NCBI GenBank assembly: GCA_035504335.1
Contig: DATJSD010000065.1
Coordinates: 76-64,075 of the forward strand
DNA from: Steroidobacteraceae bacterium
GTDB lineage: Bacteria; Pseudomonadota; Gammaproteobacteria; Steroidobacterales; Steroidobacteraceae
Direction: 5' to 3'
DNA: 64,000 bases
In this document: in pieces, positions 1-7,329 of the stretch
How positions within the stretch are numbered: the first letter of the stretch is position 1
Layout: each line of letters starts with the position of its first letter
The notes under the pieces: model-generated
The model's database searches: none
Seen by the model: the letters and a program-made list of their open reading frames with translations, nothing else
What the model was told of the DNA's origin: nothing
Program-made: the position numbers and the translations under genes

Positions 1-1136
1 TGCTGGTGGATGCCTCCGCGGTCACCGTGGCGCGCAGCCTGCACGCATTGTCGCCCGCCATCGAGCAGATCGTGAGCTTCGTGCCCCTGGCGCTGGAATC
101 GCGCCTGCCGGAATCCACGCCCCACCTGCTCTCGGTACTGGCCAGCCGAGCCTTGCTGCCGACATGCATCTACCTGGCCTGCGATGAGTTTGCTCTGGTG
201 GAGGGATGGCATCGGGAGCTGGAATTGGCCTACCGCACACTGGCGGTGGGTTGTCCGTTGATCCTGCGGGTCCGCCATCCCGACGTGACCGCCAGCGAGC
301 AGTCACTGCTCGCCGAAGAGGAGGCTCTCGACGTCGCGCCGCGGATGATTCACGACGCCTATCTGGAGCGTTGGCGACTTTCCGGACAGGCGGGTGGCGC
401 GACGACGGTGGACTGGGAGTCGTTGGCTTACGAATATCAGGAGGACAACCGCGCCGCAGCCGATCACTATTGGGTGAAGGCACGAGAGCTGGGATTTCTC
501 ATCGGGCAGGGCCACGCGGCCGCAGAGGCGGTGCTGCCGTCCGTGCCGCTCGAGCCGTCCGCGCCACTCGAGCCGCTCGCTCGCGCCGAGCATCGTCGCT
601 GGGTCGCCAGCCGGGCGCTGGCCGGGTGGCATTTCGGCGCACGACGAGACGATATGGCGAAGATCCATCCTGACCTGCAGCCCTGGGCCGCGCTGAATGA
701 GGCTGAGCGAGAAAAGGATCGTGACATCGTGCGAAGCACGGCCAGCGTGCTGCAGGCAGCCGGCTACCGCCCGAGGCCGATCTACCGGTTTTCCTGGCCG
801 CATCGGAGCGGCACGGCGCTCCGGCGCGAGGTTCGCACGGAACTGGCCGCCGCGGCAGTCTCCCAGGCGAGCGCGCACGCCCCCGCCGCGGTCGCGAATG
901 TAACGGTGCGCGTGGAGGATGCGATAACCTATGAGTGCGCCCAGGCATTGGGGGAACATCCGGGGCTGACGGTGTCGCTGGTGGTGTCGCGTTCTCTCGC
1001 GGGCCTGGCGGTGGCTGCGGGCAGTTCGACGCTTGCGGCAAACCGCCTCGCCGAGCGGGCGTGGGAGCTGTGGGATGTACCCGAAGACCAGGTCGAGCAG
1101 GTCATGGGTCGCTGGCCAACCTTGCGGCTGACGTAA
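1..1136 (+). CDS. RyR-domain protein, 5' end outside window
   Basis: ORF track 6..1136; the frame is open to the window edge, so the N-terminus is missing. EHRRWVASRALAGWHFG..KIHPDLQPW..LNEAEREKDRDIV fits the RyR repeat-domain consensus. A weaker copy precedes it (IHDAYLERW..WESLAYEYQEDNRAAADHY..LGF). Confidence 0.6.
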   Translation, partial: LVDASAVTVARSLHALSPAIEQIVSFVPLALESRLPESTPHLLSVLASRALLPTCIYLACDEFALVEGWHRELELAYRTLAVGCPLILRVRHPDVTASEQSLLAEEEALDVAPRMIHDAYLERWRLSGQAGGATTVDWESLAYEYQEDNRAAADHYWVKARELGFLIGQGHAAAEAVLPSVPLEPSAPLEPLARAEHRRWVASRALAGWHFGARRDDMAKIHPDLQPWAALNEAEREKDRDIVRSTASVLQAAGYRPRPIYRFSWPHRSGTALRREVRTELAAAAVSQASAHAPAAVANVTVRVEDAITYECAQALGEHPGLTVSLVVSRSLAGLAVAAGSSTLAANRLAERAWELWDVPEDQVEQVMGRWPTLRLT

Positions 1137-1160
1137 GCGACCGCTCACGGACAGGGCCTG

Positions 1161-2894
1161 ATGCGCTATCTAATGGCAGTGCTTGGCTTGCTGACAGCTC
1201 TGGCCGGGCCCATCGCCAATTCCCAGAGCTTTACGCGCCAACCGCATGCGAACGAGCTGGAGCACAGCTTTTATCCGAATGGCACACACGTGCTGATCAT
1301 CTGGGTAGCCCGCTACGCCCATCCGGAGGTCTGGCCGGATCTGCAGACGGCAGTTGACGCCAGCCGCATTCACGACCTTTTCATGGGTCGTGGTCTGCCG
1401 GGGTCGGATGTCCTGTCCGTGGGGCTGCCGGAATCGGCGGATGCGAGCGCCATCATGGGAGCCATACATGCCTTTGCAAGAACGCTGCCGCCCGAGGATC
1501 CCCGCGACGGCATACGGCATGGCCTGCGGGTAGTAGTCTATTTTGCGGGTCACGGTTATTCGAGAGGCGTGCAAGCGGGTCCTGAGCGATTCATCGGCTC
1601 GCACGGATACGCCGACTCGAGTGTGGGTTATCTGGTGCCGCCGAATGCAACCGACCCCGGCCGACTCAGCAGCGATGATCTGCGCACCATGATGGTGCCG
1701 CAGGCGGACTTCCTGAAGGCCGTGGGCAGCCTCAACGCCAGTGCGACGCTGGTGCTGTTGGACGCATGCTTCTCGGGTCTGGGTCTGGAGAACCTGCAGC
1801 AGGACGCGGGGACAGTGCCGCCGCTGAGTCCTGCTGAGCCGCAACGGGTGTTTCAGGTCATCACCGCCGGACAGGCCGACAGGACCGTGCCCGATGATAA
1901 TGTGTTCTCGGAACTGGTCGCCGCGGGACTCGACGGCGCCGCGGATCTCAACTTCGATGGACTGATCACGGGGACGGAGCTTGGAGAGTACCTTCGCGTT
2001 CGCATGACGGAGGAGTCCATCCGCGCCGGCCGCGTCCAGCAGACGCCACTGTTCGAGACCTACGTCGGTCCGGATATCCAGTACGCAGCGCCAGGTGAAA
2101 ACGAATTCGTCTCTCCCCAGCAGCTTCCCTTTCGGGCGGCGGTGAATTCAGTGTCAACGCCAGCACAGTTGCGTACGTTCCGTGACTGCGCTCTGTGTCC
2201 ATCCCTGCGGATTGTTCCGCGTCCACCGGGTGAGGTTGGCACCAACAGGTATCTTGCCATGGGTGTCACGGATGTCACGGCCGAGCAGTATGAGGCGTGC
2301 TTTCGCGCGGGCGGGTGTCTGCACTGGCCCAAGTCGGCGACGGACGGCTCGGGTCTGAAGCCCGTGACGGACGTCAACCGGAATGATGCTCTGGCGTATA
2401 CGAGCTGGCTGTCGTGCATGACGGGCAAGCGCTACCGCCTCCCGGCCAACTCCGAGTGGCAATACTTTGCAGCCGCCGACGCCCGGCGGTTGTCCGCGGG
2501 ATCGATCTCGAGAGCAGCACGAGCCGCCTGTCGCGGCTGCGGCAGCCTCTGGGACGGGCGCACGGCGGCGCCGGTGGCGTCTTTTCCGGCGGATGACTTC
2601 GGATTATTCGACGTGCTGGGAAATGTCTGGCAGTGGATGGGAGACTGCAGTGACAGCGATGGGGAGCGAGCCTGCAATCAGATGGGGCAGGTGCGCGGAG
2701 GCGCATTCACGACACGCCTCAGTGCCGTGGTGTCCCTACCCGTCGGGCGGCTTGCCTCGCGGGTGCGCGACAACAACATCGGCTTTCGCGTGGCACGCGA
2801 CATCGCAACGGTGAGTGCCGTGCGGATGGATTGCCAGGCCAGAGCGGGCCCCGCGCGATCCCCGATCGACACCATGCGCTCCGCATCAAAGTGA
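1161..2894 (+). CDS. exported caspase-like (peptidase C14) protein fused to an FGE-sulfatase/SUMF1 domain
   Basis: 577 aa. Signal-like N-terminus MRYLMAVLGLLTALAG. Caspase His/Cys dyad contexts YFAGHGYS and LVLLDACFSG. C-terminal FGE-fold motifs RYRLPANSEWQY, FGLFDVLGNVWQWMGDC, VRGGAF, NIGFRVARD. Confidence 0.8.
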   Translation: MRYLMAVLGLLTALAGPIANSQSFTRQPHANELEHSFYPNGTHVLIIWVARYAHPEVWPDLQTAVDASRIHDLFMGRGLPGSDVLSVGLPESADASAIMGAIHAFARTLPPEDPRDGIRHGLRVVVYFAGHGYSRGVQAGPERFIGSHGYADSSVGYLVPPNATDPGRLSSDDLRTMMVPQADFLKAVGSLNASATLVLLDACFSGLGLENLQQDAGTVPPLSPAEPQRVFQVITAGQADRTVPDDNVFSELVAAGLDGAADLNFDGLITGTELGEYLRVRMTEESIRAGRVQQTPLFETYVGPDIQYAAPGENEFVSPQQLPFRAAVNSVSTPAQLRTFRDCALCPSLRIVPRPPGEVGTNRYLAMGVTDVTAEQYEACFRAGGCLHWPKSATDGSGLKPVTDVNRNDALAYTSWLSCMTGKRYRLPANSEWQYFAAADARRLSAGSISRAARAACRGCGSLWDGRTAAPVASFPADDFGLFDVLGNVWQWMGDCSDSDGERACNQMGQVRGGAFTTRLSAVVSLPVGRLASRVRDNNIGFRVARDIATVSAVRMDCQARAGPARSPIDTMRSASK

Positions 2895-2920
2895 CTTGCA
2901 CCGAAGCCGGGGAACTACCG

Positions 2921-4291
2921 ATGTCAACGCAGACAGCCGTACCTACTGCGCCTGTGGTTTCACGGCCGGGCTCGAAACCTCGCAGTGCGCGGCTCTGGGG
3001 GCTGGGCCTCGCGGCGGTGATCGCCGCCGCGTGCCCCGGGGCTTGGGCGCAGCCCGCGCCAGATAAATCACCCTCGCCGGGCGGTGGTGGAACGATTCAG
3101 GCGGCCCGCGGGCTCGGCTTTTCAATCGAGTCGGAGATGCTGACGTATCGGGCGCTCGAGTCTAATAGCGTTGCGGTCGCGTGCGATGTCGCGGGCTATC
3201 TGCGCGGCGCGAGCGTGGATTTCAACGCTCAAACCCCTGGGGAATGCGCGCTGAACGGGGCCAGCACGGCCACCGCAAGCGTGATCGTCGCGCCGTTCGA
3301 TAGCTCCGCCTTCGAGAACTTCCGGGTCTGGCGGAGCGAGATGATGCTCATGCGCGAGCTGCACGATCGGGCGCAGCCATTGTGTCCGGAGGCGGGGCGC
3401 GGTCTGGCGAAGCAGCTGGCCCAGTCTGCGCTCTCGGCGGCCATCCCCGGAGGAGGTTCCTTGCTATCCCTCGCGCAGGGGTTGTTGGGGATCGGCGCGG
3501 CCAACCCCGGCACCGTCACGCCCGTAGGCGGCACGATCCAGGATCAGGCTTTCATGGACGCCGTGGCTCGCCAGCTGCACAGGCTGCATATCGTGGTGCT
3601 GATGCCCTCGACCTATGCTCCGTTCGACATCTCGGCGCCCGCTGCGCAGGAATCACCGTTTGTTTCAGGTGTGATGCAACTTCTGGATCTGCGCGCCTGT
3701 CTGGTGCGACAGGAAGCGGGTGATCTCGCCAAGGACCCGGACGCAACCAATGTCCGACAGCTGGTCGGCGATATCGATGCCTACGTCGGGGCCCTCCAGG
3801 GCTTTGGTGCCTCGCCTGTGAGCGATGCCACACCCGGCAGCCCAGCCGGCCGGGACTTGAGCGGCAAGAAGGCGGATGCCGGTGCCGTTTCGGTTTCCGT
3901 TTGGAGTGCGCCGCCGACTCTGCTGCTCGCGGTGCTGTCCGGTGACGGATTCGCTCAGGAGCTCGGCGTCAGCCCGACGACCGGCCTGCTGGCGATCGAT
4001 GAGAACTCGCCGCACGTGCTGCTGGTAAAGGCATTGGAATCGGGTGGCAGCGTGGCAACCTCCCGCGGCGGGATGCTGAGGAAATCGGAAACGCATTACA
4101 GCGGTGGCGCGGTGGGGACCTTTGCGATGTTCAGGTTGAACGGCGAGCTCGAATGCTCCGGGAACGTCTATGACTACGGCGACTCGGGCGACTCGGGCAA
4201 CTTCGCGCAGGGCATGCGCGCCTACCAGCCTGCGCCTGCCAAGCAGTACATCTTCCAACAGGGCAGTTGCCAGCGCGCGGCCGGTCAGTGA
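2921..4291 (+). CDS. hypothetical exported protein, no family recognised
   Basis: In-frame ATG at 2921, 26 nt after the upstream stop; the track start 2831 would overlap the upstream gene. Signal-like RSARLWGLGLAAVIAAACPGAWAQ. 456 aa with no recognisable motif. Confidence 0.55.
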   Translation: MSTQTAVPTAPVVSRPGSKPRSARLWGLGLAAVIAAACPGAWAQPAPDKSPSPGGGGTIQAARGLGFSIESEMLTYRALESNSVAVACDVAGYLRGASVDFNAQTPGECALNGASTATASVIVAPFDSSAFENFRVWRSEMMLMRELHDRAQPLCPEAGRGLAKQLAQSALSAAIPGGGSLLSLAQGLLGIGAANPGTVTPVGGTIQDQAFMDAVARQLHRLHIVVLMPSTYAPFDISAPAAQESPFVSGVMQLLDLRACLVRQEAGDLAKDPDATNVRQLVGDIDAYVGALQGFGASPVSDATPGSPAGRDLSGKKADAGAVSVSVWSAPPTLLLAVLSGDGFAQELGVSPTTGLLAIDENSPHVLLVKALESGGSVATSRGGMLRKSETHYSGGAVGTFAMFRLNGELECSGNVYDYGDSGDSGNFAQGMRAYQPAPAKQYIFQQGSCQRAAGQ

Positions 4292-6078
4292 CCCCGGCGG
4301 GGGAAGTGCATGATCGTCCAGGGCACGCGCCGCCCGGTCGCAATGGCGTTCCCCTGCTGATCGGTATCACCGGGCATCGCGACCTCGTGGAGCGGCAGAT
4401 TCCGCAGATCAGGGCGCTCCTGCGCAGCCTGCTGCAACGGCTGTCGGACGAGTACCCGTCCGTAGGCGCTGTGCTACTCACCTCGATGGCCGAAGGCGCC
4501 GATCTGCTGGCCGCGGAGGTGGCCATGGAGCTGGGAATCGCGACGACCTGCATCCTGCCTCACCCCGTCGCCGAAGCGCGTGCCAGCCTGGAGTCCGACT
4601 CCTCGCGACAGCGCTTCGATCAGATCTACCAGCGATCCAGCCACGTAAATATCGACGCAATGGTAGAGCTGCACCACGAGCGCATCGGCGAGGAGGCGCC
4701 AACCCACGAACGTCGCTTTCAGATCGCCGGGGCTGTCGTTGCACGCTTCAGCACCCTGTTGATCGCCGTATGGGACGGCAGACGCACGGCCCGTGCCGCC
4801 GGTACGGCTTGGGTGGTGGACTACCGCCGCCGCGCGCTCGGAGTCAGCGCGGCCCACGCGCCTCTCCCGGACGTTGACCTGTTGAGCGTCGACGACAACG
4901 ACCTCGTCTATGAGATCCGCTGCTCCCGTCGATCGCGGCCGGACCCCGAGGACGCCATCGCGGTGCAAGCCATGGGCTTCAGCGGACGCGGCGTGACCCA
5001 TGCGTGGGAGCTGCCGCGCAGCCTGCATCTGGTCCTGCAGCGCATGGAGGATCTCAATGAGGACATCGCGCGGTTCGCGGTGAATATCGCCGCCGAAAGC
5101 CGCAGTCTCTCCCCGCCGCACACCACCCCGCCATCACACCTGCGGCGTCTGGATGAGCTGTTTCGCGCAGTCGACTGGTTGGGCGAGCACTATCAACGCT
5201 GGTTCAATCAGACGTTGCGGATGCGCTATGCGCTCTGGGCGGCGATGGCGCTGCTGCTGGTTTCCTTCAAGAAGGATTCCCTGGGACCTTTCGGCATCGC
5301 GGCCATCGCCGGTGTCCTTGCGCTGTTCGGCGCGGGCTTCGCGCTTTCGCGATGGGCGCACCATCATGACTGGCACCGCAAGTACCTGGACTACCGGGCC
5401 CTGGCAGAGGGTCTCAGAGTGGAATTCTACTGGGAGCTGGCCGGCATCGAGCGTCACCCCGAGGGCGAGCTTGCTCACGAGGCCTTCCTGCAACGGCAGG
5501 ACATCGCGTTGCAATGGATCAGAGTGACCATGCGCACGGCCCGGCTGCGACTGGCGATTGAACGCACTCCCCCGACTCCGGACGGACTCGCCCACGCGGT
5601 AGCGGGCGGGATCGGGGCCGAAGAGCACCGCCAACCCGCCGGTCAACTGCGCTATTACCATACGGTCGTCGAGCGCTGCGAGCGTCGCGTGCGGATGCTC
5701 GAAGCGATCAAGGTCGCATTGCTGGCGGGCGGCTTGCTGTTGGCCGTTGTGTTCGCGGTGGAGCTCCTCGCGGTACGCGCACATCACAGCGGCTTCCCGG
5801 CGGCCACGCGTGAGCGCCTGCTGTTTGCCCTCGCGTTGCTGCCCGCCTTCGCCGCGATCTTTGATACCTACGTGGATCAAAAGGCCGATCGCGTGCTGCT
5901 GCGACAGTACCGTCACATGCGCGCACTGTTCCGCATCGCCAATCGCGAGTTGCGGGCCACCCGCTCGGATGCGGCCCGCAAGGGCATCCTCCGCTCGTTG
6001 GGGCATGCGTGTCTGGCCGAGCACGCTCAATGGGTACTCGGGTATCGGGACAAGCGCATAGAAGGACTGCGCTGGTAG
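4267..6078 (+). CDS. SLOG-like Rossmann domain fused to two SLATT-like 2TM modules (membrane protein)
   Basis: 603 aa. N-terminal LLIGITGHRDL and LLTSMAEGADLLAAEVAMELG resemble YpsA/DprA/LOG (SLOG) motifs. The C-terminal half has two pairs of hydrophobic helices, each followed by a charged helix (WHRKYLDYRALAEGLRVEFYW; VLLRQYRHMRALFRIANREL). An alternative GTG start at 4288 overlaps the upstream TGA. Confidence 0.6.
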   Translation: MPARGRSVTPAGEVHDRPGHAPPGRNGVPLLIGITGHRDLVERQIPQIRALLRSLLQRLSDEYPSVGAVLLTSMAEGADLLAAEVAMELGIATTCILPHPVAEARASLESDSSRQRFDQIYQRSSHVNIDAMVELHHERIGEEAPTHERRFQIAGAVVARFSTLLIAVWDGRRTARAAGTAWVVDYRRRALGVSAAHAPLPDVDLLSVDDNDLVYEIRCSRRSRPDPEDAIAVQAMGFSGRGVTHAWELPRSLHLVLQRMEDLNEDIARFAVNIAAESRSLSPPHTTPPSHLRRLDELFRAVDWLGEHYQRWFNQTLRMRYALWAAMALLLVSFKKDSLGPFGIAAIAGVLALFGAGFALSRWAHHHDWHRKYLDYRALAEGLRVEFYWELAGIERHPEGELAHEAFLQRQDIALQWIRVTMRTARLRLAIERTPPTPDGLAHAVAGGIGAEEHRQPAGQLRYYHTVVERCERRVRMLEAIKVALLAGGLLLAVVFAVELLAVRAHHSGFPAATRERLLFALALLPAFAAIFDTYVDQKADRVLLRQYRHMRALFRIANRELRATRSDAARKGILRSLGHACLAEHAQWVLGYRDKRIEGLRW

Positions 6079-6172
6079 CCGCCCGCTGCTCGAGCGGCCC
6101 CACTTCTACGAGTTCCGAGCCGGCGGCGAGCATCTGCCTGGGCTGCGGCCGACGGCGTGCCCCGCAGGCTCG

Positions 6173-6304
6173 TCAGCCGCCGGTATCCACCGTCGTGCCG
6201 CGGATGATGTTCTTCAGCGCAACCGCCCAACCCGACAGCAGCAGGGCGGACGAGGCGATGACCACGAACCAGTAGAAGGCTTTGGTCCTGATCTTATTCA
6301 GCAC
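6173..6304 (-). CDS. small single-TM protein (43 aa), absent from the ORF track
   Basis: Hand translation gives V(M)LNKIRTKAFYWFVVIASSALLLSGWAVALKNIIRGTTVDTGG*. GTG start, one clear hydrophobic helix, below the 60-aa track cutoff. Confidence 0.35.
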   Translation of the reverse strand: MLNKIRTKAFYWFVVIASSALLLSGWAVALKNIIRGTTVDTGG

Positions 6305-6432
6305 GGGAATCGCTCTTCTGGTCAGTGAGTGGGCTGATCATCATAGCATCGATCATCGGTCGGCCGCAGCCGCCCCTGGTCAGTCGCCCGCGCGCAAGTC
6401 GGCCCCGGGCAGCGCGCGCCTCCCGCGCTGCG

Positions 6433-7329
6433 TCAGCACACCATCAGGCGATGGCCGTCCGGATCGATCAGTTGGCGCGGCGCCGCGCCCGGTCGCTCGC
6501 CGGCGAACACCAGCCGCGTGGCAGCGACATCGTTGGAGTGGCCGTGGGCAGCGCCCACGGTGCTCCTGCCGGCCTGCCCGGTACCAGGCCCGGTACCGGG
6601 CCCGGTACCGGGCGCCGGCGCGCGGTAACACAGCAGCTCGAGGTGCGGGGGCGCCTGTGCGGTGCTGAGCGCGGTCACCTCCACCCGCACCTCTTCCAGG
6701 CCGTCGAGCCGCTGCTGCTCGGGCCCCTGATTGATCGATCGGGCGCTCACCTGCAACCCGAGGTTCTCGTAGAAGGCGATGCTGCGCGAGCTGTCCGCGA
6801 CCACGATCGCCGAGTGATCGATGCCACGAAACAGCATCGCGGCGCGGGCGGGTACCGCGACGGGCGCGGACGGTGATGCCGGAAACTCGAGCAGCTCCAG
6901 CGGATGGCCATCCGGATCGCGGAACTTGAACGCCGTCACGCCGCCGGAGCTGGCCGGCAGGCGCTGCGGCCCGTGCGTGGAGATCGCCGCCCAGCCGGCG
7001 ACCTGCCGCAGATGCGCGTACGCGCGCTGCATGTCCTCGACGACGATGGCGAAGTGCTGAAAGCGCAGATCGCAGGCCGAAACGCCCGGCGGGTAGCCGC
7101 GCCCCAGGGCGACGGGTTGCAGCAGCTGGAGCTGCTGCGCCCCGAGGCGCAGCAAGACGCTGTGCGCGGCGCCGCGCACGCCCGCGAGGCGTGTGGCCGT
7201 CGCCTCGGTGAGCATCTCGCTCGCCACGACACGGCAGCCGCAGGCGTCCTGGTAGAACTGCGCGAGTCGCGCCGCATCGGGGCTGATCAGACACAGCCGC
7301 GTGAGGCGCACGGCCCTGCCGCTGCTCAC
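6433..7329 (-). CDS. VOC (glyoxalase/bleomycin-resistance/dioxygenase) family protein, tandem domains
   Basis: Repeated VOC modules: FQHFAIVVEDMQRAYAHL..FKFRDPDGHPLELLEF; IDHSAIVVADSSRSIAFYENLG..PHLELLCY; LIDPDGHRLMV. The GTG start at 7329 overlaps the upstream TGA (GTGA). The track start 7536 lies inside the upstream gene. Confidence 0.8.
   Translation of the reverse strand: MSSGRAVRLTRLCLISPDAARLAQFYQDACGCRVVASEMLTEATATRLAGVRGAAHSVLLRLGAQQLQLLQPVALGRGYPPGVSACDLRFQHFAIVVEDMQRAYAHLRQVAGWAAISTHGPQRLPASSGGVTAFKFRDPDGHPLELLEFPASPSAPVAVPARAAMLFRGIDHSAIVVADSSRSIAFYENLGLQVSARSINQGPEQQRLDGLEEVRVEVTALSTAQAPPHLELLCYRAPAPGTGPGTGPGTGQAGRSTVGAAHGHSNDVAATRLVFAGERPGAAPRQLIDPDGHRLMVC
6577..6612. repeat. 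12-bp in-frame tandem repeat (3 copies) in the VOC gene
   Basis: cccggtacc(a/g)gg at 6577, 6589 and 6601, encoding PGTG repeats on the minus strand. Confidence 0.9.

Follow-up and report, generated by a model that had tools for sequence, protein, structure and literature searches.

What does the single polypeptide encoded close to one end of a Steroidobacteraceae contig (DATJSD010000065.1) do, in which an initial annotation had recognised a SLOG-like sensor followed by two SLATT-like membrane modules? We addressed this question for a stretch of 64,000 nucleotides (the window) that contains the gene. The polypeptide proved to be encoded by one uninterrupted frame, which aligns full length to more than 1,200 homologues (Table 1). 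GTG codons at 4288 and 4306 are alternative in-frame starts; the first of these, the start called in public databases (596 aa), overlaps the stop of the upstream gene as GTGA, suggesting that the two genes are co-translated. All the peptides that had been quoted were found, with LLIGITGHRDL at residues 30-40, LLTSMAEGADLLAAEVAMELG at residues 70-90 and, further on, both helix pairs, each accompanied by its charged helix. In 42 relatives sharing 45-54% identity, G33, G36, H37, R38, D39, A75, G77, A78, D79, W169, G171, G179 and T180 are invariant, while H37, W169, R377, E381, W417, G579, E585 and W589 remain so in 68 relatives at 23-42% identity, so these motifs are not there by chance. A scan of positions 1-7000 for promoters and terminators gave none exceeding shuffled expectation.

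Table 1 Features of the target gene and its upstream neighbours (window positions; residues of the 603-aa protein)
Feature	Residues	Positions	Strand	Basis or remark
RyR-domain protein, C-terminal 377 aa		3..1136	+	cut by contig end 75 bases before window
Exported caspase-like + FGE-sulfatase (FGS) protein		1161..2894	+	signal peptide MRYLMAVLGLLTALAGPIANSQS
unk486, exported protein, upstream gene		2831..4291	+	stop overlaps target GTG 4288
Whole target ORF		4267..6078	+	single intact frame, 603 aa from TTG 4267
SLOG-like (DprA/YpsA/LOG-type) alpha/beta domain	~28-240	4348..4986	+	AF2 model, Foldseek, invariant columns
Helical linker, SLOG to SLATT module 1	~241-289	4987..5133	+	AF2 helices 251-269, 271-277
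SLATT-like module 1 (DUF4231/SLATT_3-like)	~290-440	5134..5586	+	profiles, hydropathy, AF2
Module 1 lead helix, then TM1	~316-335	5212-5271	+	
Module 1 TM2	~337-366	5275-5364	+	amphipathic helix WHRKYLDYRALAEGLRVEFYW next
SLATT-like module 2 (SLATT_1-like)	~455-603	5629..6075	+	profiles, hydropathy, AF2
Module 2 lead helix, then TM3	~478-506	5698-5784	+	
Module 2 TM4	~514-538	5806-5880	+	helix VLLRQYRHMRALFRIANREL, conserved C-terminal helix LGHACLAEHAQWVLGYRDKR

In the AlphaFold2 (AF2) model of the protein (pLDDT 81 overall, above 90 across most of residues 30-130), the N-terminal domain adopts the Rossmann-like three-layer alpha/beta arrangement with a parallel sheet that characterises SLOG domains (strands 30-36, 68-72, 92-97, 125-128 and 164-169), so that the initial reading of this region stands. 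When the domain was searched with Foldseek, the high-probability (0.98-1.00) local matches were SLOG-superfamily proteins without exception. Matches in the PDB comprised ShosA (8zva), DprA (3uqz, 4ljr, 5mll), a Moco carrier (2iz7), TM1055 (1rcu) and LOG (5wq3), and those in the viral library BFVD comprised DprA-like, YspA/cpYpsA SLOG and DUF2493 proteins (TMt up to 0.74, E down to 9e-5). At the sequence level, no Pfam SLOG family matched the target above its curated threshold. YAcAr (PF10686), one of these families, aligned to residues 35-93 with an E of 0.023 and 15 bits, under its 28.2-bit cut-off, and was weakly matched by 19 of the 42 close relatives and by 5 of the 68 distant ones (best E 1.9e-4). 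PDB sequences searched with the family alignment profile returned no match, even at an E of 10. The glycine-rich loops that follow strands 1 and 2 in SLOG proteins, together with their GGxGT-like motif, have invariant or almost invariant equivalents in the target: GxxGHRD (G33-x-x-G36-H37-R38-D39), SxAxGAD (S73-x-A75-x-G77-A78-D79), WDG (W169-D170-G171) and AGT (A178-G179-T180). By analogy with other SLOG domains, they may form a ligand pocket.

The name SLATT itself refers to association or fusion with SLOG. The family, reportedly defined by Burroughs and colleagues in 2015 (Pfam SLATT_1-6 and DUF4231; NCBIfam SLATT_1-6), is like the target in its 2-TM hairpin with flanking helices and in its association with SLOG and nucleotide-signal enzymes, but the target carries two different SLATT-type modules in tandem, under the curated cut-offs. 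The SLATT layout of a long helix, two adjacent TM helices and an amphipathic helix occurs twice in the AF2 model, at residues 290-392 and 459-564, with the long helix in each case running into the first TM segment (H290-336/H341-367/H369-392 in module 1, H459-504/H512-538/H541-564 in module 2). Kyte-Doolittle analysis of the target and of the 42-sequence alignment gave four TM-like segments in two pairs, and the predicted topology has the N-terminus inside and every soluble part in the cytoplasm.

Each module was then found to match SLATT profiles separately. Module 1 matched DUF4231 over residues 302-387 (E 6e-3, 17.4 bits, under the 24.7 cut-off) and NCBIfam SLATT_3 (E 3e-4, 20.8 bits, under the cut-off of 45), and module 2, as fragment 446-603, matched Pfam SLATT_1 near threshold along positions 9-122 of the 122-position profile (E 5.3e-5, 23.7 bits, cut-off 26.3). 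Although the target lies under every curated Pfam and NCBIfam cut-off, the matches recur among relatives: 33 of 68 match DUF4231 (best 2.3e-7) and 46 of 68 SLATT_3 in a consistent register for module 1, and for module 2 Pfam SLATT_1 is matched by 28 of 45 (best 5e-7) and NCBIfam SLATT_1 by 25 of 45 (best 2e-7). SLATT-type families are thus matched by 25-46 of 45-68 relatives, with E values down to 1e-7 to 1e-10, whereas other TM families each match only 1-3 members. Both helical modules of the C-terminal half show similarity to SLATT/DUF4231 profiles, under the cut-offs in the target itself. A PADLOC scan of the target and six neighbours gave no matches, and no solved SLATT structure was among the Foldseek matches in the PDB.

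The module had also been described as duplicated. While the repeated helix layout agrees with this, direct comparison of the two modules by hhalign gave a weak, in-register alignment (P 0.004, probability 9%), which leaves internal duplication unproven by this route; the N-terminal domain matched neither module in the same kind of comparison. As for the novelty claimed for the architecture, the two SLATT-like modules are present in the target, but a SLOG-less tandem-SLATT protein exists as well, and a class named 'SLOG and 4TM' or '4TM SLOG' is already listed as a putative Thoeris effector in the supplementary tables of a preprint of December 2025 (bioRxiv 10.64898/2025.12.03.692087). The target is a further member of a kind of protein already predicted in the literature. 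Taken together, the SLOG-type AF2 fold and the recurrent SLATT profile matches support a SLOG-like domain joined to two SLATT-like modules in one chain, from which we infer the 'sensor-effector' and 'pore-forming' roles.

This family is very large: clustering at 50% identity still leaves more than 4,500 groups, and at least 580 species carry a member. Even so, Pfam, NCBIfam and PADLOC miss it at their curated cut-offs. Its distribution is patchy and accessory, with a copy in 82 of the 301 genomes of the order, in 28 of 72 genera and, within the genus, in 2 of 6 genomes, and Pfam searches of ten longer members revealed no further recognisable domains. A TIR_2/ThsB_TIR-1TM-TPR protein is encoded next to the family gene in 42 of 80 genomic loci and a DUF4062-nSTAND1-1TM-TPR protein in 8, giving 50 loci with one or the other; among the 53 loci flanked by 4 kb or more on either side, such a partner is present in 38 and absent in 15. 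In one locus (L087), the effector and partner genes overlap by 4 nt. The partners are laid out like receptors: the TIR or STAND head lies inside, a single TM helix crosses the membrane and a TPR array is outside. Across 44 partner TIR heads the WxxxE motif (W103, E107) is 97% conserved, with E107 at what we take to be the catalytic position of TIR NADases. The association of SLATT proteins with a maker or sensor of nucleotide signals is seen here both in the SLOG domain fused in cis and, across the family, in the TIR genes next to 42 of the 80 loci.

In light of these data, the target is probably a nucleotide-gated, membrane-disrupting inner-membrane effector of a bacterial conflict system of the anti-phage type. 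A small signal derived from a nucleotide would be received by its cytoplasmic SLOG domain. This domain shares one chain with two SLATT 2-TM hairpin modules, and the bound ligand would alter how the hairpins pack or oligomerise; the resulting breach or depolarisation of the membrane would stop the cell, by abortive infection or growth arrest. Where a TIR partner is present, its head may produce a signal from NAD (ADPR or a molecule like cADPR), which the SLOG domain would bind, with the SLATT pair then killing or arresting the cell. A 4-TM part built of two SLATT modules and gated by a fused SLOG domain offers a testable model for one of the putative Thoeris-like effector classes, just as a TIR or STAND partner with extracytoplasmic TPRs offers one for the sensing of envelope events.

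The nearest described systems share parts of this scheme. In the accessible part of the preprint, the 'SLOG and 4TM' class resembles the target by description in its SLOG domain, its four TM segments, its position beside TIR genes and its predicted response to a TIR-made signal, but the 4TM part is not presented there as two SLATT units. In type I Thoeris, as outlined in the same text, the SLOG domain of ThsA (SIR2-SLOG) binds 3'cADPR, and a receptor for a TIR-made ADPR derivative is again fused to a killing domain, although the output is a soluble SIR2 NADase rather than a membrane module; no sequence-level match was seen between the target and the ThsA SLOG domain, and the closest SLOG relatives of the target are of the DprA/YspA type. 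ThsH, the SLATT effector of type VII Thoeris, is activated by canonical cADPR and likewise acts in the membrane downstream of a TIR signal maker, by a proposed oligomeric breach (bioRxiv 10.64898/2025.12.03.692087). As annotated in the portion available, ThsH has a SLATT domain without SLOG and a ligand pocket proposed to lie between SLATT protomers, whereas the target has a dedicated SLOG domain and two SLATT modules per chain. When the preprint's TIR domains (4TM SLOG, types I, III and VII) were compared with our partners by BLAST, only marginal matches to type III TIR4 were found. Defence by a further system, DRT10, depends on a SLATT protein (bioRxiv 10.64898/2026.04.29.721553).

The window copy differs from the 'SLOG and 4TM' class, and from most members of its own family, in lacking a TIR gene in its operon or locus, including the 6 kb of its cassette. 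It sits in a lower-GC island, where it follows a recurring cassette that runs caspase, RyR membrane protein, exported caspase-FGE protein and exported unk486. The same cassette with a SLOG-2xSLATT gene is found again in loci L098/L099, where a divergent nSTAND1-TPR gene is also present, and in loci L101/L102; in one relative the nSTAND1-TPR gene precedes the cassette. The unk486 protein likely starts at ATG 2921, which leads into a signal peptide (...LWGLGLAAVIAAACPGAWAQPAP), and its model (pLDDT 69) gave no significant fold match; full-length relatives of the RyR protein are about 700 aa long with N-terminal TM helices. Three neighbours from the window gave no tblastn matches in the 80 family loci and so are not usual partners of the family, and an HMM of the RyR protein matched none of 849 neighbour ORFs of these loci. 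A possible sharing of contigs by homologues of unk486 and of the effector was rejected, as look-ups gave different contigs.

In the MAG, which is 92.65% complete and whose contig ends inside the cassette, there was no TIR_2 or nSTAND1 match above cut-off. A weak TIR_2 match was a false positive (prolyl-tRNA synthetase), the nSTAND1 matches were all P-loop noise under the cut-off, and the sole match to a TIR-TPR query covered the TPR part alone. Because no partner is visible here and the nSTAND1-TPR gene precedes the cassette in a relative, the signal source for the window copy is probably encoded just past the point where the contig stops, or somewhere else.

Kaur et al. (2020, eLife, PMC7159879) described NTP-dependent conflict systems with caspase, FGS, TIR, SLATT and nSTAND components, in which SLATT proteins are nucleotide-responsive pore-forming effectors. 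The caspase-like peptidases and FGS domain of the window cassette, and the nSTAND1-TPR protein of its relatives, are in line with these systems, but their vWA-MoxR, GAP1 and EAD components were not seen at the window locus and RyR domains, present in the cassette, do not occur in that paper. It is conceivable, if rather doubtful, that the five-gene island (caspase, membrane RyR protein, exported caspase-FGE protein, exported unk486 and SLOG-2xSLATT) is a self-standing, previously undescribed envelope-surveillance system, to which an nSTAND1-1TM-TPR receptor would probably also belong. Periplasmic recognition proteins would then relay news of an envelope attack through the membrane to a head domain on the cytoplasmic side, whose nucleotide product would open the SLOG-gated double-SLATT pore; if so, RyR domains would be regular components of TIR/STAND-SLOG signalling in bacteria. 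For the window alone the gain is modest: a hypothetical protein is annotated and a recurring caspase-RyR-FGE island is recognised.

TRPM2 is gated by ADPR, and its N-terminal MHR1/2 region has a SLOG fold. By comparison with this channel, the SLOG domain of the target could gate a small four-TM channel that tunes physiology to cues from the envelope, which the periplasmic TPR, FGE and unk486 proteins would pick up, the target then being a non-lethal ligand-gated ion channel or envelope-stress transducer rather than an agent of abortive infection. The receptor-like topology of the partners and the two exported proteins of the cassette would suit such a role, and so would the report, in the accessible text of the preprint, that two 'SLOG and 4TM' systems gave no phage defence in E. 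coli MG1655 (bioRxiv 10.64898/2025.12.03.692087), a result that also counts against an anti-phage effector if those systems are homologous to this family. By BLAST, the TIR domains of these two systems (Ca. Nitrospira nitrosa, Streptomyces sp.) have no similarity to the TIR-1TM-TPR partners; the exact protein of the Nitrospira system was not found, and the contig of its best homologue has no effector. TRPM2 and TRPM8 appear among weak Foldseek matches (probability 0.14-0.30), but these are not significant. The patchy accessory distribution, together with an island containing caspases, TIR, CHAT, patatin and STAND, is typical of conflict systems, and characterised SLATT proteins are toxic defence effectors, all of which makes a non-lethal channel unlikely.

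A role for the N-terminal domain other than that of a signal receptor appears more improbable again. As a LOG-type nucleotide N-glycosidase it would make or destroy a signal at the membrane, and as a DprA/ShosA-like ssDNA-binding module it would sense invading DNA directly; the best fold matches are indeed DprA and ShosA, which are DNA-binding SLOG members, and LOG-type hydrolases, and a catalytic pocket could be made up of the conserved H37/R38/D39, D79, D170 and G179-T180. However, of the LOG motif PGGxGTxxE the family consensus (GGTAxVV) keeps GGT but lacks the glutamate, the AF2 model has no nucleic-acid-binding extension, and the fusion to twin SLATT modules and the linkage to TIR fit a receptor role, as in ThsA.

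Finally, it is very unlikely that the gene is a decaying, non-functional remnant of an acquired island that has lost its partner, despite the lack of a detected TIR or nSTAND1 gene in the MAG, its long branch and its many substitutions at conserved sites, because the frame is intact over 603 codons with all deep invariants kept, the AF2 model is confident, the arrangement of cassette plus effector is repeated in other genomes, the overlap with the upstream stop suggests co-translation, and the contig breaks inside the cassette, so that a partner may simply be unassembled. The window copy deviates at 38 of 216 conserved columns, where the median is 6, the most substitutions of this kind in its clade, with W448G at the start of module 2 among them, and in the tree it is a long-branch member, sister to the nSTAND1-linked clade. 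The cassette marker was found in 1 of the 301 genomes of the order.

The initial annotation had read one gene of the window as encoding a single polypeptide in which a SLOG-like sensor is followed by two tandem SLATT-like modules, each with two transmembrane (TM) helices, and all the peptides that it quoted were found in the translated frame. Besides the TTG that opens this frame, two other in-frame starts exist (GTG 4288 and GTG 4306), of which the former is used by the public protein database (596 aa) and overlaps the preceding gene's stop codon as GTGA. In hydropathy profiles, both of the protein itself and of 42 aligned relatives, the two helix pairs show up as four TM-like segments, ~316-335/337-366 in module 1 (residues ~290-440) and ~478-506/514-538 in module 2 (residues ~455-603).

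Features of the window locus (window coordinates), and examples of partner genes and of double-SLOG variants at other loci (L) and in genomes and contigs of the order (G:C)
Feature	Position	Strand	Remarks
RyR-domain protein	3-1136	+	truncated where the contig ends, 75 bases ahead of the window
caspase-like + FGE-sulfatase (FGS) fusion, predicted exported	1161-2894	+	clear signal peptide
unk486, predicted exported, ~455 aa	2831-4291	+	likely start ATG 2921; conserved cysteines
SLOG-2xSLATT ORF	4267-6078	+	single open frame, 603 aa from TTG 4267
TIR-1TM-TPR partner examples	L023:5286-7496; L056:9756-11882; 40 other loci
SLOG-SLOG-SLATT-SLATT frames	G231:C5:1174247-1176712; G150:C1:238540-240990; G077:C3:303772-306240		also family cluster P0125

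When the window protein was scanned on its own, Pfam and NCBIfam returned sub-threshold matches only, to the same families that had been predicted: YAcAr, a SLOG family (35-93), DUF4231 and SLATT_3 (~297-387) and SLATT_1 (460-503). The name SLATT itself denotes association with SLOG. In 68 divergent relatives, NCBIfam matched SLATT_3 in 46 and SLATT_1 in 35 (best 4.8e-10), and Pfam matched DUF4231 in 33 (best 2.3e-7), SLATT_1 in 17 and SLATT_3 in 14, while unrelated TM families matched one to three members each and none more. Module 2 was also scanned in isolation (residues 446-603 of 45 members). Pfam SLATT_1 matched 28 of these fragments (best 5e-7) and NCBIfam SLATT_1 matched 25; the window's own fragment aligned to positions 9-122 of the 122 in the Pfam profile (E 5.3e-5, 23.7 bits against a cut-off of 26.3). 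From this recurrence and the isolated scan of module 2, module 1 appears, by profile matching, to be DUF4231/SLATT_3-like and module 2 SLATT_1-like, each independently. Aligned directly as profiles, the two modules matched in register but weakly (P 0.004), so a common origin would rest on their separate SLATT matches.

The 42-sequence alignment yielded a confident AlphaFold2 model (pLDDT 81, pTM 0.83), with an N-terminal beta-alpha-beta domain and a C-terminal half in which the same helix layout occurs twice. Every high-probability Foldseek match of the N-terminal domain belongs to the SLOG superfamily, including ShosA, DprA (three species), the Chlamydomonas Moco carrier, TM1055 and a type-II LOG in the PDB, and DprA-like, YspA/cpYpsA SLOG, DUF2493 and LOG-like proteins in a viral library (TMt up to 0.74). 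No solved SLATT structure was among the structural matches of the model. Frame, motifs and TM pairs thus bear out the original observation, and its interpretation is supported by the recurrence of SLOG/SLATT matches in relatives, the isolated module 2 scan and the structural comparison.

In the 42-relative alignment, GxxGHRD (33-39), AxGAD (75-79), W169, G171 and G179-T180 are invariant at 45-54% identity; across the 68 divergent relatives, at 23-42% identity, H37, W169, R377, E381, W417, G579, E585 and W589 still are. Judged from these alignments, the motifs of the protein are strongly constrained. Because it has four TM helices and lacks a signal peptide, we infer a cytoplasmic location for the SLOG domain, the stretch between the modules and the C-terminal helices.

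The family is large. In the 90% collection the window protein has full-length homologues numbering more than 1,213; every one is annotated as hypothetical, and Pfam domains are precomputed for none of them. At 50% identity there are 4,542 clusters with E <= 1e-3, mostly of 560-600 aa. A scan of species genomes found the gene in at least 580 species, the best 80 of which belong without exception to the Gammaproteobacteria; cultured members of Dyella, Rhodanobacter, Lysobacter, Rehaibacterium and Noviluteimonas are among them. Within the window's order it occurs in 82 of 301 genomes and 28 of 72 genera, and in two of the six genomes of its own genus, an accessory pattern. In some members, with frames of ~850 aa, the SLOG-like domain at the N-terminus is duplicated. 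At two further loci, a 333-aa protein (L103:3652-4653; also L104) has two SLATT-like 2-TM modules (faint DUF4231 and SLATT_1 matches) without SLOG, so two SLATT units per chain are not unique to the window protein; its neighbour is a TIR protein of 641 aa, in an island of Terriglobales type that also carries caspase-TPR and patatin genes.

De novo clustering of neighbouring ORFs across the 80 best loci revealed one dominant family directly upstream, mostly on the same strand. By Pfam it takes two forms, TIR_2/ThsB_TIR with TPR repeats (~700-780 aa; 42 loci) and DUF4062-nSTAND1 with TPR (~1,150-1,250 aa; eight loci), and of the 53 loci flanked by 4 kb or more on each side, 38 have a partner. 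At one locus (L087) the TIR-TPR gene and the effector gene overlap by 4 nt. Each partner has exactly one TM helix, placed between head and TPR array, and, since no signal peptide is present, a receptor-like topology is probable, which would place the head in the cytoplasm and the TPRs in the periplasm. A WxxxE motif, which in TIR NADases holds the catalytic glutamate, is 97% conserved in the TIR heads. No RyR proteins were found in the 80 TIR-type loci. In 11 of the 80, a small ORF of one recurring family (~155 aa; e.g. L023:4615-5088) closely precedes the effector in the same orientation.

Alongside the domain identities, partner linkage and accessory distribution established here, the best-supported reading of the SLOG-2xSLATT protein is that of a signal-gated membrane effector. 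Its cytoplasmic SLOG receptor would bind a second messenger derived from a nucleotide, most likely one made from NAD by the TIR (or DUF4062/STAND) head of the partner, upon which the tandem SLATT hairpins would switch to a membrane-breaching or depolarising state. Ligand, gating and lethality are proposed here by analogy. According to a preprint (bioRxiv 10.64898/2025.12.03.692087), the SLOG of ThsA binds 3'cADPR, a model for SLOG as receptor, and ThsH, the SLATT effector of type VII Thoeris, is activated by cADPR, a model for the SLATT output; SLATT effectors of CBASS and DRT10 (DRT10: bioRxiv 10.64898/2026.04.29.721553) extend the analogy. A non-lethal gated channel or envelope-stress transducer, which would share the tandem hairpins and the receptor-like partner, is an unlikely alternative. 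Somewhat less likely still is that the DprA/LOG-like domain is enzymatic or DNA-binding, a domain whose structural matches include DprA and LOG and which is fused to two membrane modules.

The same preprint, a December 2025 study of TIR systems, lists 'SLOG and 4TM' ('4TM SLOG') among putative effectors beside TIR genes, and two such systems, from Ca. Nitrospira nitrosa COMA1 and Streptomyces sp. GKU 895, gave no defence in E. coli (bioRxiv 10.64898/2025.12.03.692087). By its described architecture this class may be related to the present family; the TIR domains of the two published systems are not similar to the family's partners. The window protein is a divergent member of a widespread, already predicted kind with a putative function.

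Less expected is the attachment of this effector to a caspase-RyR-FGE-unk486 island, which merits a study of its own. In the window there is no TIR/nSTAND1 partner gene, and three other genes lie upstream on the same strand. The four co-directional genes (1-6078) have a GC content of 64-67%, against 69-75% downstream, and among the order's 301 genomes unk486 occurs in that of the window alone; both features suggest that the block was acquired horizontally as an island, which the contig end truncates. Across the whole MAG (92.65% complete, 144 contigs), neither TIR_2 nor nSTAND1 gave a gene above cut-off, and the partner may just have been missed in assembly, given that the contig breaks off within the cassette. 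In the effector tree the window copy sits on a long branch as sister to the Steroidobacteraceae clade linked to nSTAND1; of 216 columns conserved at 90% or more within its clade, it carries substitutions at 38 (median 6). That it is an orphaned remnant in this genome seems improbable: every deep invariant is kept and the frame is intact. The effector of another cassette locus (L098) is placed elsewhere in the tree, which suggests that the effector joined the cassette more than once, or that cassette copies evolve fast.

The caspase-like/FGE product matches NCBIfam 'caspase, EACC1-associated type' weakly and, given its signal peptide, its caspase-like domain would be periplasmic. unk486 had no match in Pfam, NCBIfam or fold searches (model pLDDT 69), and adjoins a Peptidase_C14 caspase-like gene in every locus examined. 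Around its relatives the order is caspase (~740 aa), RyR (~700 aa), caspase/FGE, unk486, with RyR always between the two caspase-like genes; in full-length RyR relatives (e.g. L098:3158-5278) TM helices at the N-terminus and a Rossmann-like GxGxxG stretch come ahead of the RyR domain. A SLOG-2xSLATT gene follows the cassette at L098 and L099, where the gene ahead of the cassette encodes a divergent nSTAND1-TPR protein that shares the DUF4062-type head, and lies before the cassette at L101 and L102. At more distant unk486 loci the Peptidase_C14 neighbour is constant, and TIR, SLATT_1, CHAT, patatin, TPR and WD40 genes are variably present. One cassette locus lacks a SLOG-2xSLATT gene; there, directly after unk486 and on the opposite strand, a gene (L100:8380-9324) encodes a protein of 314 aa that matches TIR_2 weakly.
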